This document shows, one piece after another, positions 136 to 5,232 of a stretch of 5,232 bases of DNA. Position 1 is the stretch's first letter. The number at the start of each line of letters is the position of its first letter. This DNA comes from a virus (lineage: Duplodnaviria > Heunggongvirae > Uroviricota > Caudoviricetes), in IMG/VR virus record IMGVR_UViG_2690316188_000006. The stretch is one strand, 5' to 3'. The position numbers and the translations under genes are program-made. The notes beneath the pieces are model-generated. The model made no database searches, was not told the DNA's origin, and worked only from the letters and a program-made list of their open reading frames with translations.

Positions 136-193
136 AAAAAGGGCGGCAGAGCAGTCACGGAGTAAAACTGATACCGCCAAACGTCACCAGAAA
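136..193 (-). ncRNA. dicF: DicF antisense sRNA of the dicB-type operon, including its 3' intrinsic terminator
   Basis: Reverse complement of 136-193 reads TTTCTGGTGACGTTTGGCGGTATCAGTTTTACTCCGTGACTGCTCTGCCGCCCTTTTT, which matches DicF as I recall it and ends in GC-rich sequence plus a T5 run. It sits downstream of ydfC-like genes on the same strand, as in Qin. Ends are approximate. Confidence 0.7.
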
Positions 194-2001: not shown

Positions 2002-2154
2002 TCAGTCAGTGTTTCTGGTTAACCAGCGACGCGCGCCAGCTTCAGTTTTAAACGTTTTGCTTCTGGTATATGTCATCGCGGTAAACGTGCCGTCCTGGTT
2101 GGGAAACACGCCGCATACCAGAGATTCGTTGTTGCCAAGCTCGATAGTATCCAT
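2002..2154 (-). CDS. YdfA-like protein, second diverged copy (50 aa from the internal ATG; in-frame ORF extends to 2235, 77 aa)
   Basis: Paralog of the 913-1068 gene. The 5' 134 bp (2157-2290) is identical to 1071-1204, and divergence increases toward the 3' end. Same RBS arrangement as copy 1. Confidence 0.7.
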   Translation of the reverse strand: MDTIELGNNESLVCGVFPNQDGTFTAMTYTRSKTFKTEAGARRWLTRNTD

Positions 2155-2332
2155 GCTGACCTCATTTCCCCTTAACGCCGGGGTAGCGGAACAAAAACCT
2201 GCTGCATAGTTATTAAAGTTGAACCCTGCCGTCATGTTCTTACGCCTCGGGCTGGCTACTTAACCCCTGACCACTGCCTGGTAACTCGAAGTATTGCCCT
2301 GCATTCTGTGGGGTGGGGTGGGTGGCAGGTAT

Positions 2333-2451: not shown

Positions 2452-2871
2452 TTAAGAGGCTTTTTGTTTTTTCTTTCGTGCTAACTCTTCGTAAATTGCA
2501 TTGTACTTCTGTTTTTTCTCTTCAAGAGTTTTTAAAAGTTCATCTGTCTCACTGTCAGGGAGCTCGTCCAGAAGGTCAATGATGATTTTTTGTCTTGGAT
2601 TTAACTCCTGATAGAAACGTACCTGTCCACTTTCTTCTGTATCCTCTCCCAAAAGATAGGTTGGTGTTGTTCCTATTAGTGTTGCTAATTCCCTTAATTT
2701 CTCCCGGCGAGGAATTGTTTCGCCATTAAACCATTTGCTAACCGCTTTTGGTGTTAATTTCATTCGACGGGCAATTTCTGCCTGCCTTCCATGTTGTTCA
2801 TAACCAGCATTTTCACAGGCTAGCGCAAGCCTACTGGCGAACTCTTTACGCGCTTTATCTTCATGAACCAT
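2452..2871 (-). CDS. Prophage repressor, XRE-family HTH (CI/DicA-like), 139 aa
   Basis: N-terminal HTH_XRE-like segment (QAEIARRMKLTPKAVSKWFNGETIP) and an acidic/helical C-terminal tail reminiscent of DicA. Divergent from the cro-like gene. No SD before ATG 2871 (leaderless-type start). Confidence 0.85.
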   Translation of the reverse strand: MVHEDKARKEFASRLALACENAGYEQHGRQAEIARRMKLTPKAVSKWFNGETIPRREKLRELATLIGTTPTYLLGEDTEESGQVRFYQELNPRQKIIIDLLDELPDSETDELLKTLEEKKQKYNAIYEELARKKKQKAS

Positions 2872-2950: not shown

Positions 2951-3205
2951 ATGAACCAGAAAACACTTGAAGATGTAATCAAAACTGTTCGCGTTGCTGT
3001 TGTGGCCGACGTTTGTGGTGTCAGCCAAAGAGCAATCTATAAATGGATGGATAACGGAAAATTGCCTCGCACAGAATATACCGGCGAAACAAATTACGCT
3101 GAAAAAATCGCTCTTGCATCAAACGGATTATTTTCTGCCGATGCAATTTTAACTATTGGCAGGAATAAAACTACTACGAAAAAGCTGATGGGAGTTGATT
3201 CATGA
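2951..3205 (+). CDS. Cro-like / YdaS-family HTH regulator (84 aa)
   Basis: ATG at 2951 with GAGGGTGAT upstream. HTH-like segment VADVCGVSQRAIYKWMDNGKLP. First rightward gene opposite the repressor. The longer ORF-track start (2879) lacks an RBS and would overlap the operators. Confidence 0.8.
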   Translation: MNQKTLEDVIKTVRVAVVADVCGVSQRAIYKWMDNGKLPRTEYTGETNYAEKIALASNGLFSADAILTIGRNKTTTKKLMGVDS

Positions 3206-3627
3206 AAATCAAGCATGAACACATCCGCATGGCGATGAATGCCTGGGCGCATCCGGACGGCGAAAAAGTACCGGCTGCGAAAATTACCAAAGCATATTTC
3301 GAGCTGGGAATGACGTTCCCGGAACTGTATGACGACAGCCATCCGGAAGCCCTGGCTCGCAATACTCAGAAAATTTTCCGCTGGGTGGAGAAAGACACCC
3401 CTGATGCGGTTAAAAAAATTCAGGCGTTGTTACCAGCTATCGAAAAAGCAATGCCACCTCTGCTGGTGGCCCGAATGCGCAGTCATAGCTCAGCCTATTT
3501 TCGGGAACTAGTGGAGACGCGGGAACGACTGGTGAGAGACGCTGATGATTTTGTCGCAGTGGCGATCGCTGGTTTCAACCAGATGAATCGTGGTGGCCCT
3601 GCAGGAAATATTGTGGCTGTGCATTGA
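3202..3627 (+). CDS. ydaT: YdaT-like protein (141 aa), proposed CII-analog regulator / formerly called a toxin
   Basis: Start MKIKHEHI... resembles Rac YdaT as I recall it. ATG 3202 overlaps the cro-like stop (ATGA, 4-bp overlap). Position is second gene of the rightward operon. Confidence 0.8.
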   Translation: MKIKHEHIRMAMNAWAHPDGEKVPAAKITKAYFELGMTFPELYDDSHPEALARNTQKIFRWVEKDTPDAVKKIQALLPAIEKAMPPLLVARMRSHSSAYFRELVETRERLVRDADDFVAVAIAGFNQMNRGGPAGNIVAVH

Positions 3628-3698
3628 CTCGCAATATTCATACCGGATCACTTCCGGCAATTTGTGAGTAAAAAGATTCGGTATCAAAAGAGGTGAGT

Positions 3699-4769
3699 AT
3701 GGCTAACGCCTGGCTCAGATTATGGCATGACATGCCAAATGACCCTAAGTGGCGAACAATTGCCAGGGTGTCAGGGCAGCCAATTGCAACAGTGATGGCA
3801 GTGTATATCCACCTCCTGGTGAGCGCGTCACGAAATGTCACGCGAGGTCACATTGATGTCACGACAGAAGATTTGGCAAGTGCGCTCGACGTGACAGAAG
3901 AGGTAATTGATTCAATTTTGCAGACGATGCAGGGGCGGGTACTTGATGGTGATTTAATCACTGGATGGGAAAAACGCCAGGTGCTTAAAGAGGACAACGG
4001 CAATATTTCGCAAACCGCAAAATCTCCTGCAGAGCGCAAGAGGGCGCAGCGAGAGAGGGAAAGAAAGCGGGAACAAAATGGCGATTGTCACGGCGCGTCA
4101 CGAAATGTCACGCACATGTCACGACGAGTCACGACAGATAAAGATACAGATAAAGATACAGATCAAGAAGATCAAAACACTATGGTCCATGGCGTAAAAA
4201 ACGCCACGAACCAGGCAGGGGATGTTCAGACCGTCAATCCTGGTCAGCCAGCAGGCACGACACCGGAAGCCGATTCAGCGTATGCGCTGAAAGCCGATTC
4301 GGGCGCTGTGCAGCAGGTGATGACCGCAAGGCCGGAGCAATCACACCAACTGCAGCAGCCCGAAGCCGATTCCGCCATTCAGCGGGAAGCCGATCGGGTA
4401 GTCCCGGAAAACACCGGTCAGTCTGTGGGACGAGTGGATTATCCGGATGTGTTCGAACAGGTCTGGCGGGAGTACCCGTTGCGTGCCGGAGCAAACCCGA
4501 AGAAATCCGCTTTCAGTGCCTGGAAGGCCAGATTACGCGAGGGGGTGCCACCAGAGGCCATGCTGGATGGCGTGAGGCGTTACGCAAGATACTTGGCGGC
4601 TACCGGGAAAGCGGGAACGGAATTTGTTCAGCGAGCGACGACGTTTTTTGGACCGGACCGGAATTTTGAGAACCCCTGGTTTCTCCCGGTAAGCGGCACG
4701 AACAACCAGCGTTGTGTGAATCATATTACTGAACCGGATAACGAAATTCCGCCGGGCTTCAGGGGGTAA
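3699..4769 (+). CDS. Phage replisome organizer / replication initiator (lambda O functional analog), 356 aa
   Basis: N-terminus AWLRLWHDMPNDPKWRTIARV... resembles the phage replisome-organizer N-terminal domain. Basic linker ERKRAQRERERKRE. Internal iteron arrays. AGAGG 5 nt before ATG 3699 (the track's GTG at 3693 is an alternative). Stop TAA at 4767-4769. Confidence 0.85.
   Translation: MANAWLRLWHDMPNDPKWRTIARVSGQPIATVMAVYIHLLVSASRNVTRGHIDVTTEDLASALDVTEEVIDSILQTMQGRVLDGDLITGWEKRQVLKEDNGNISQTAKSPAERKRAQRERERKREQNGDCHGASRNVTHMSRRVTTDKDTDKDTDQEDQNTMVHGVKNATNQAGDVQTVNPGQPAGTTPEADSAYALKADSGAVQQVMTARPEQSHQLQQPEADSAIQREADRVVPENTGQSVGRVDYPDVFEQVWREYPLRAGANPKKSAFSAWKARLREGVPPEAMLDGVRRYARYLAATGKAGTEFVQRATTFFGPDRNFENPWFLPVSGTNNQRCVNHITEPDNEIPPGFRG
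3825..3867. repeat. Iteron-like array 1: four GTCAC(G/A) repeats at 10-11 bp spacing inside the replication gene
   Basis: GTCACG at 3827, 3837, 3858 and GTCACA at 3847. 3823-3843 is a 21-bp exact copy of 4093-4113. Confidence 0.5.
4085..4174. other. Putative origin of replication: iteron array 2 (five GTCACG repeats, 10-11 bp period) followed by an AT-rich tract with a tandem 12-mer and two GATC sites
   Basis: GTCACG at 4087, 4097, 4107, 4118, 4128. Then GATAAAGATACA twice (4137-4160) and GATCAAGAAGATC. Lies in the linker region of the initiator gene, as lambda ori lies within O. Confidence 0.5.
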
Positions 4770-4809: not shown

Positions 4810-5232
4810 GTGGCAAAAGTTTTTACACAAGAAGAGCGGGAAAAAATTAAAGGGCTGATCGTGGAATTCGTACGCCTTAACGGACGAGGCACGATTCGGC
4901 AGTTATCGGATGAAATTGGTGTCAGTCATGCGTCTGTCGGTCGTTTATGCATGGAGCTGGCCGCCAGTGGTGATGTTTACAATTCCGGTTACGGAGTATT
5001 CCCGTCTGAGCAGGCGCGCAAGGACTGGCAAAACGCCCGCAAAAAACTCTCAAGGGCAAAGCTGAAGAAACCATCTGTGGTTGATCCGGACCTTATCTGG
5101 CTATTACCAGACGGCGAAATACGCCGCTACGACAGGCGCCTAAACATAATCTGTCGCGAGTGCCGGAAGAGCGAAGCTATGCAGCGTGTACTGGCATTTT
5201 ATCAAGGAAATGTTAGGTATTTTAGACGTTAC
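4810..5232 (+). CDS. Hypothetical protein, 5' partial in window (at least 141 aa, runs off the right edge); possible winged-helix DNA-binding protein
   Basis: GTG at 4810 with AGGAGG 4 nt upstream. Open frame to the window end. Segment TIRQLSDEIGVSHASVGRLCMEL looks HTH-like. Not in the ORF track because it has no stop in the window. Confidence 0.55.
   Translation, partial: MAKVFTQEEREKIKGLIVEFVRLNGRGTIRQLSDEIGVSHASVGRLCMELAASGDVYNSGYGVFPSEQARKDWQNARKKLSRAKLKKPSVVDPDLIWLLPDGEIRRYDRRLNIICRECRKSEAMQRVLAFYQGNVRYFRRY

Follow-up and report, generated by a model that had tools for sequence, protein, structure and literature searches.

Origins of replication that lie inside an initiator gene are already known, as are initiators that use two clusters of sites. 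In phage lambda and the Shiga toxin (Stx) phages, ori-lambda is located within gene O, between the parts encoding the N-terminal DNA-binding domain and the C-terminal recruitment domain (PMC6022878, PMC7466680). The 'replisome organizer' G38P of phage SPP1 binds to oriL, which lies inside gene 38 and has direct repeats next to an AT-rich unwinding element, and also to oriR (PMC6316719, PMC5737612). In Helicobacter pylori, oriC1 and oriC2 flank dnaA (PMC3479198). Here, we describe the replication initiator gene in a 5,232-nucleotide stretch of Caudoviricetes DNA (IMG/VR record IMGVR_UViG_2690316188_000006; the whole stretch is referred to as the window). The gene contains two arrays of the same short repeat, or iteron: array 2, the putative origin, and array 1, which is located upstream of it in the codons of the predicted DNA-binding domain. 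In bipartite dnaA origins, including that of Bacillus subtilis, the initiator bridges the two clusters. Two arrays of the same iteron served by one initiator are also found in P4 (ori and crr), P1 (incC and incA) and R6K (gamma and alpha/beta), where looping or pairing between the arrays is positive (P4, R6K) or negative (P1 incA).

The locus shares with ori-lambda the position of the origin between the two functional parts of the initiator gene, and in both systems the N-terminal domain and the origin move as one mosaic block. Unlike O, the initiator in the window had no match to PF04492 (Phage_rep_O) even at expectation values (E) up to 10, so it is not an O homologue. Its iterons are short direct repeats with a period of 10-11 bp, whereas those of lambda are 18-19-bp inverted repeats bound by dimers. 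The window also has the second array upstream, inside the codons of the DNA-binding domain, an arrangement that to our knowledge has not been described for lambda O.

As in SPP1, the initiator would bind to direct repeats in its own gene and to a second cluster elsewhere. However, oriR of SPP1 is about 13 kb away from oriL, non-coding and provided with its own AT-rich region, whereas array 1 is 230 bp away from array 2, coding and without such a region. Within gene 38 of SPP1, families of direct repeats (D1 and D4) cluster in the middle of the gene. Homology to the N-terminal domain of G38P was considered and rejected: the hhalign probability was 0.1%, and G38P had no match to Pfam family PF09681 (phage replisome organiser N-terminal domain). 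Like the bipartite origins at dnaA in H. pylori and B. subtilis, the window has two clusters that bracket initiator-coding DNA, only one of which adjoins a putative or known unwinding element. In those origins, however, DnaA is the initiator, and its gene as a whole is flanked by intergenic clusters, whereas the arrays in the window bracket only the part for the DNA-binding domain, and one of them lies in codons. P4, P1 and R6K differ in having initiators of unrelated families and non-coding arrays 0.3-4.5 kb apart. In the open-access literature, we found no description of the second array of this family, nor of iterons in the codons of an initiator's own DNA-binding domain.

Two arrays of one iteron lie in the initiator gene

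The initial annotation of the window had pointed out that a 21-mer, GCGCGTCACGAAATGTCACGC, occurs twice in the gene. Indeed, positions 3823-3843 and 4093-4113 are identical, and the match extends on neither side. The offset between the two copies is 270 bp, which corresponds to 90 codons; therefore, both are read in the same frame, and the peptide ASRNVT appears at residues 43-48 and 133-138 of the protein. Its upstream copy was correctly placed within the codons of the N-terminal domain. The four GTCAC(G/A) cores that had been noticed there at a spacing of 10-11 bp were found again at 3827-3863, and array 2 contains five GTCACG cores (Table 1). A distance of 270 bp had also been given for the two arrays. 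This value holds from 21-mer to 21-mer but not for the gap between the arrays, as 229 bp separate the last direct core of array 1 from the first core of array 2.

The motif is concentrated in this part of the DNA. Eleven GTCACR sites were counted in the window, compared to 4.4 +/- 2.1 in shuffled sequences, and 10 of the 11 are located within 3827-4133. In the complete genome of phage Tritos (46 kb), which contains 35 GTCACR sites, the two arrays are the only clusters (at least two sites within 25 bp). With at least three direct copies of a short motif at helical-repeat spacing, array 1 has the composition of an iteron array.

Array 1 is conserved at the nucleotide level

The G of the core falls on codon positions 3, 1, 2 and 1 in the four direct units of array 1 (GCG TCA CGA, GTC ACG, GGT CAC and GTC ACG), and on codon positions 2, 3, 1, 3 and 1 in array 2. 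The same core hexamer can thus code for SR, VT, GH or CH. Since the cores occur in all three codon phases, the repeat resides in the DNA, and the repetition of the ASRNVT peptide is its consequence.

Silent sites were evaluated in 27 loci with arrays of the GTCAC class. The genes have a G+C content (GC) of 0.42-0.69 and come from Escherichia, Aeromonas, Pseudomonas, Bordetella, Serratia, Acidovorax, Gilvimarinus and others. Codon usage in the cores was fixed or nearly so: V47 (GTC), T48 (ACG), G50 (GGT), H51 (CAC) and V54 (GTC) were each encoded by the same codon in 26 of 26 sequences, T55 by ACG in 25 of 26, S44 by TCA in 24 of 26, and A43 by GCG in 24 of 27. In the inverted copy, V65 was encoded by GTG in 23 of 23 sequences. 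Four codons were used for R49, which belongs to a spacer, and the other invariant V, T, G, A, P, L, R and S residues were encoded by three to six codons each. V32, for example, was encoded by GTC (10 loci), GTT (8), GTG (7) and GTA (2), and all four codons were likewise used for T20, G79, G89 and V81.

The mean codon entropy was 0.17 bits for the eight core codons versus 1.89 bits for 32 other conserved codons with at least four-fold degeneracy, and the two ranges did not overlap (Mann-Whitney p = 8e-6). As the entropy was compared between sites of the same sequences, shared ancestry does not explain the fixed core codons. Units of array 1 that have no in-frame twin in array 2, namely GGT CAC and the inverted GTG AC, were fixed as well. 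A set of 70 near-identical copies from E. coli prophages contained too few single-nucleotide polymorphisms to be informative; a few singletons fell inside the cores. The fixed silent sites indicate that selection acts on array 1 directly at the nucleotide level, for the motif, the period and the orientation that array 2 also has.

The motif of array 1 follows that of array 2 across homologues

The set of loci for this comparison comprised five phage loci, 59 loci from a genome scan in which each species was represented by one genome, and 26 viral loci from a second viral scan with a divergent query. In a first scan of viral contigs, nearly all copies had an identical N-terminal protein sequence; the diversity came from the genome scan and the second viral scan. 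The commonest hexamer in the first 560 nt of the gene, whichever hexamer it was, formed two clusters, at about 115-150 and 345-440 nt from the WxRxW...DPK anchor. With the array-2 zone as the sole source of the motif definition, the 140-nt array-1 zone contained two or more direct copies of the motif in 41 of 49 loci, and three or more in 31. Its density was 21.6 per kb in the array-1 zone versus 0.35 per kb in the remaining locus, a 61-fold difference. When the motifs counted in array 1 were tabulated by array-2 class, the resulting matrix was diagonal. With a blind detector of periodic 5-mers, 50 of 63 loci had an array in the zone of array 1, compared to 26 of 1013 size-matched control windows (2.6%). 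The blind detector also gave 10 apparent disagreements in motif between the two arrays, which were mostly register shifts of one iteron.

The motifs were assigned to the classes GTCACG, GTGACG(C), GTAACG(C), GCAACG(C), CGAACGC, GGAACGC and GAAACG. Across about 80 homologous loci, motif and orientation were almost always alike in arrays 1 and 2. The period of 10-11 bp and the orientation agreed in every class, and the flanking consensus was similar. An inverted copy at the place equivalent to that in the window was also seen in the GCAAC and GTGAC classes. In a tree of the N-terminal domain, from which the segment encoded by array 1 had been removed, the classes were interspersed; for example, GTAAC loci were found inside GTCAC clades, and a GTCAC locus (L113) among CGAAC relatives. 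This distribution indicates several independent switches of the motif, with the arrays agreeing in each. Array 1 thus combines DNA-level constraint with co-variation with the origin array, as an iteron array does. The proposal in the initial annotation that the gene contains a second array of the same binding motif is borne out by the fixed silent positions in 27 homologues and by the tracking of the motif through at least seven classes.

Array 1 has moved and expanded, and is absent from some loci

One locus (L132) has array 1 in codons of the helix-turn-helix, shifted downstream by about 60 nt, while the units at the ancestral position have decayed. Array 1 has grown to 8-10 units in loci with a loop insertion (L143 and L144, also L147), and it mixes direct and inverted units in L113. 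In a metagenome-assembled genome (MAG) from the Pseudomonadota (L134), the region about 110-190 nt after the WLRLW anchor contains three CGAACGC-type units, as in its relatives, beside two or three GTGACGC units that match its own array 2. This locus looks like a fossil or an intermediate of a switch in iteron specificity.

Array 1 without array 2 was found in no locus. Three sphingomonad loci (L128, L131 and L133) have 4-6 units in array 2 and no array 1. In a Microcystis phage (L005), neither array was seen. In L111, L114 and L122, which have a low GC, array 1 is absent or unrecognisable and array 2 is weak too. In a Serratia MAG (L125) and in Pantoea (L135), the N-terminal domain is fused to a segment with a GIY-YIG-like motif (YVYYV...GIS.NPW), and both zones are devoid of the iteron motif of the family; the detector matches in the array-2 zone (ACTAC/CTACG) lie in the fused segment. 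In these two loci, the N-terminal domain may have been reused for another function.

Array 2 is accompanied by features of a core origin

The GC reaches its minimum within the gene, 0.325, at 4130-4189, directly after array 2. This is the site of an AT-rich tract that could serve as a DNA unwinding element, and it is followed by a palindrome, so that iterons, AT-rich tract and palindrome are arranged in the same order as in ori-lambda. Both features adjoin array 2 only; near array 1, the GC does not fall below 0.40 (3890-3929). Because an AT-rich tract of the unwinding type is present beside array 2 only, array 2 is the probable core origin, and array 1 would be an accessory cluster. A promoter and terminator scan of positions 3500-4400 found nothing at array 1; its only signals were the palindrome and, within array 2, a weak promoter-like site on the minus strand. 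The palindrome is situated just past a mosaic junction at about 4157-4174.

Array 1 encodes a variable loop of the predicted DNA-binding domain

Residues 1-149 of the initiator were modelled with AlphaFold2 (AF2) from a 43-sequence alignment. The mean predicted local distance difference test (pLDDT) score was 73.9, with values above 90 for most of residues 11-90. Five helices (4-14, 16-25, 29-45, 56-63 and 67-77) are predicted, with a loop (46-55) that contains one bridge residue between the third and the fourth; a hairpin (78-88) and a disordered basic linker follow. This predicted layout is winged-helix-like. A Foldseek search against the PDB gave no significant match (best E = 0.067); winged helices of the MarR, CRP, GntR and Rrf2 types and a RepA_N-type initiator were found only among the weak matches. 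In a sequence search of solved structures, the N-terminal domain had no match, and only a weak DnaT-like match at the C-terminus was obtained.

The loop over array 1 is the part of the domain that varies most between motif classes in both length and sequence, with ASRNVTRGHIDVT, NASANATERG, ASTATQGNADATRGNVA and longer insertions. All that the classes share there is a (T/E)RG core. The protein tolerates at this loop whatever the DNA motif dictates.

Array 1 as a proposed auxiliary part of a two-part origin

Judged from the sequence comparisons, array 1 is very probably a selected array of initiator sites. The simplest reading is that both arrays would be bound by the same protein. An analogy to lambda O and SPP1 G38P (PMC6022878, PMC7466680, PMC6316719, PMC5737612) suggests that this protein is the N-terminal domain encoded between them, which would recognise the motif. 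The core origin would consist of array 2 and the AT-rich tract, arranged as in ori-lambda. Array 1, about 230 bp upstream and with the orientation and one-helical-turn spacing of array 2, would act as an auxiliary loading site that raises the local concentration of the initiator. The complex formed on array 1 could then join the complex on array 2 via cooperative binding or looping and help to open the AT-rich tract. We favour such a stimulatory role of array 1 in the assembly of the origin complex, which may be likened to that of the second box cluster in bipartite chromosomal origins (PMC3479198). P4 crr and the enhancer-type sites of R6K would be further parallels. Cooperation between the two arrays is presumed here, and the assignment of a specific cooperative or looping role to array 1 is tentative, with a chance slightly short of even. 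Overall, we estimate a probability of about 0.5 that array 1 is an auxiliary initiator-site array in a two-part phage origin.

Several observations weigh against this explanation. The three sphingomonad loci have kept array 2 without array 1, indicating that array 1 is not universally needed; it looks auxiliary. The distance between the arrays is 188-319 bp in the GTCAC class and 110-271 bp in the others, and the helical phase is not conserved; such variation in both length and phase speaks against a loop of fixed geometry. Gene conversion from array 2 could inflate the apparent conservation of array 1. Moreover, the AF2 model is of moderate quality, and it has no significant structural neighbour that would point to the DNA-binding surface. 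Finally, a search of the open-access literature found no paper on this family and nothing relevant on its iterons, on the GTCACG iteron or on ydaU.

Array 1 could instead act as an autoregulatory roadblock. In this case, RNA polymerase that started at the early rightward promoter would meet initiator inside the initiator's own reading frame, on array 1 and on the inverted half-site 32 bp further downstream, and would be impeded by it. This would feed back on the synthesis of the initiator and of downstream genes or couple transcription to the firing of the origin. The location of array 1 fits, as it is within the 5' third of the gene whose product would bind to it, in the operon of the Cro-like, cII/YdaT-like and initiator genes. 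A roadblock needs no fixed phasing with array 2, in agreement with the variable spacing. Furthermore, the conserved inverted copy recalls the operators of iteron plasmids, in which Rep dimers repress their own synthesis via inverted repeats. However, the absence of any coding-strand promoter-like site at or just downstream of array 1 means that promoter occlusion is not available as a mechanism, array 2 would already be a roadblock, and neither the strict co-orientation nor the one-turn periodicity would be necessary. Antiterminated early phage transcription, in addition, usually gets past bound proteins, and we consider this role rather unlikely. Array 1 might also be a negative control site that titrates the initiator or handcuffs array 2 on the same or a sister molecule, as incA does in plasmid P1. 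The arrays of the same iteron bracket initiator-coding DNA just as incC and incA bracket repA in P1, and array 1 has no unwinding element of its own. On the other hand, the prophages with this gene are lambdoid, integrate and replicate lytically (Tritos has genes for an integrase and for lysis), and a limitation of copy number has no obvious benefit for them. Plasmid control arrays also usually outnumber the origin sites, whereas the numbers here are similar (about four each), which leaves negative control quite improbable.

It is also conceivable that initiator bound to array 1 blocks the leftward fork from the AT-rich tract and so determines the direction of replication, giving unidirectional early replication or a switch to rolling circle, in line with a proposal for G38P at oriR of SPP1. 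SPP1 offers a precedent in that G38P at oriR has been proposed to stall forks (PMC6316719), and array 1 lies on the side of array 2 that faces away from the AT-rich tract. A leftward fork would already encounter array 2, a further barrier at a distance of only 230 bp from the start would add little, and no features resembling a polar terminator were seen; a fork barrier is very improbable. Lastly, array 1 could have no function of its own. It would then be left over from an internal duplication and be maintained by constraint on the peptide ASRNVTRGH, or be renewed through gene conversion from array 2. Such an origin would account for the exact in-frame 21-mer shared by both arrays and for the presence of ASRNVT at both places in phages of E. 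coli, Aeromonas and Pseudomonas. It would not account for silent positions that are fixed inside the cores only and vary in the spacers, nor for a loop peptide that changes freely between classes and yet always spells the current motif. As the units specific to array 1 are fixed too, and the array has been relocated and expanded independently, a non-functional remnant is very unlikely and the least probable of the explanations considered here.

Genomic context of the initiator gene

The window corresponds to the part of a Rac/Qin-like lambdoid E. coli prophage that serves immunity and early replication. The match to the antisense small RNA DicF places it in the dicB-dicF region of a Qin/Rac-like prophage (Table 1). 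DicF was the sole match in an Rfam scan of the window, which gave no sign of a role of the repeat at the RNA level. The operon order is cro-like, cII/YdaT-like, initiator.

Table 1. Features of the window and of the initiator gene
Feature	Position	Strand	Remarks
DicF antisense small RNA	141-192	-	Rfam RF00039, 76.7 bits, E = 3e-16
Two DUF1391 genes	913-1149 and 2002-2235	-	
Repressor gene	2452-2871	-	
Cro-like gene	2951-3205		
YdaT/cII-like gene	3202-3627		
Replication initiator gene	3699-4769	+	356 aa, ATG at 3699; PHROG 3729, phrog_1701, AF2 model
Array 1	3823-3867	+	four direct GTCAC(G/A) cores at 3827, 3837, 3847 and 3858 (spacing 10, 10, 11); end of helix 29-45 and loop 46-55 (SASRNVTRGHIDVT)
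Inter-array DNA	3864-4086	+	codes for helix-turn-helix, wing and basic linker of the predicted DNA-binding domain (AF2)
Single inverted core	3887-3896	-	CGTGAC on the + strand at 3890-3895; 32 bp centre to centre from the last direct core
Array 2 (putative origin array)	4086-4135	+	five direct GTCACG cores at 4087, 4097, 4107, 4118 and 4128 (spacing 10, 10, 11, 10)
AT-rich, A-skewed tract (putative DNA unwinding element)	4134-4182	+	12-bp tandem ACAGATAAAGAT x2, encodes TDKDTDKD; repeat family D8
Palindrome/hairpin beside the AT-rich tract	4183-4213	.	DNA fold -8.7 kcal/mol, z = -3.05; read by the terminator scan as a minus-strand terminator-like site
DUF977/Ren-like helix-turn-helix gene	starts 4810		next gene after the initiator

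The initiator begins with a helical, winged-helix-like domain (aa 1-95). A basic linker and the region with the origin-type repeats come next, and an acidic tract precedes the DnaD/DnaT-like module at the C-terminus. PHROG 3729 ('replication initiation protein') matched the initiator from end to end (E 2.9e-256), and phrog_1701 ('DnaD-like helicase loader') matched aa 122-356. The last residues showed a weak DnaT-like match. The DnaD/DnaT-like module may itself recruit the host helicase machinery. PF09681 aligned over aa 5-123 (positions 1-119 of the 121 in the profile) with 16.4 bits, which is below the cut-off of 23.3 (E = 0.0093), and NCBI uses the name 'phage replisome organizer' for close relatives. 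A 36-nt direct repeat with 75% identity (4263-4298 and 4359-4394) is located in the linker before the C-terminal domain and gives rise to a PEADSA... peptide repeat. Downstream of the initiator gene, no gene for a lambda-P-like or DnaC-like helicase loader was seen in the window (4810-5232) or in phage Tritos (locus L146).

DNA of the gene was matched in 2731 of 5426 complete E. coli genomes, and inducible phages of Escherichia, Aeromonas, Pseudomonas and Ralstonia carry the gene as well. The matches in E. coli are mosaic: the segment 3601-4156, with the N-terminal domain, both arrays and the AT-rich tract, and the segment 4174-4767, with the C-terminal module, are found separately with other partners. 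In sequenced phages such as Tritos and Evi, the N-terminal region is identical or near-identical to that of the initiator in the window. An identity with the Rac oriJ/YdaU system was considered and rejected. YdaU of K-12 is annotated as DUF1376, to which the initiator in the window had no match; the two proteins are thus in different families, and the latter is not the classical oriJ initiator. The likeness to the Rac and Qin prophages is limited to neighbouring genes and elements (YdaT-like, DUF977, DUF1391 and DicF). For oriJ, no sequence detail was found in the open-access literature searched.

Two long direct duplications were noted elsewhere in the window. One (925-1204 and 2011-2290, 94% identity) spans the two DUF1391 genes, and the other (314-514 and 1202-1402, 98% identity) spans the 5' part of the open reading frames 316-531 and 1204-1692. 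Together, they suggest a segmental duplication upstream of the repressor gene.

Implications for the phage family

The two arrays and the codons between them might form a self-contained specificity cassette, in which the sites flank the helix-turn-helix and wing codons presumed to read them and one array lies in a loop of the same domain. We consider this idea unlikely. If it were true, specificity and sites would be inherited and switched together, and the amino acids of the loop would be set by the protein's own DNA target. Furthermore, a nascent initiator would meet its first sites on the DNA that had just been transcribed, resulting in a preferential action in cis.

All cores of array 1 can be removed by synonymous changes, so that its function can be tested with an unaltered protein. 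With at least seven motif classes and apparent intermediates, the family is a tractable system in which to study how the specificities of initiator and sites change jointly. Array 1 is also a natural case of dual coding, as the same DNA codes for protein and is a putative protein-binding site, and the constraint on silent sites can be measured. If array 1 is indeed an auxiliary origin element, the origin of a large lambdoid module would be two-part, with one part hidden in coding DNA, where both annotation and origin cloning would overlook it.

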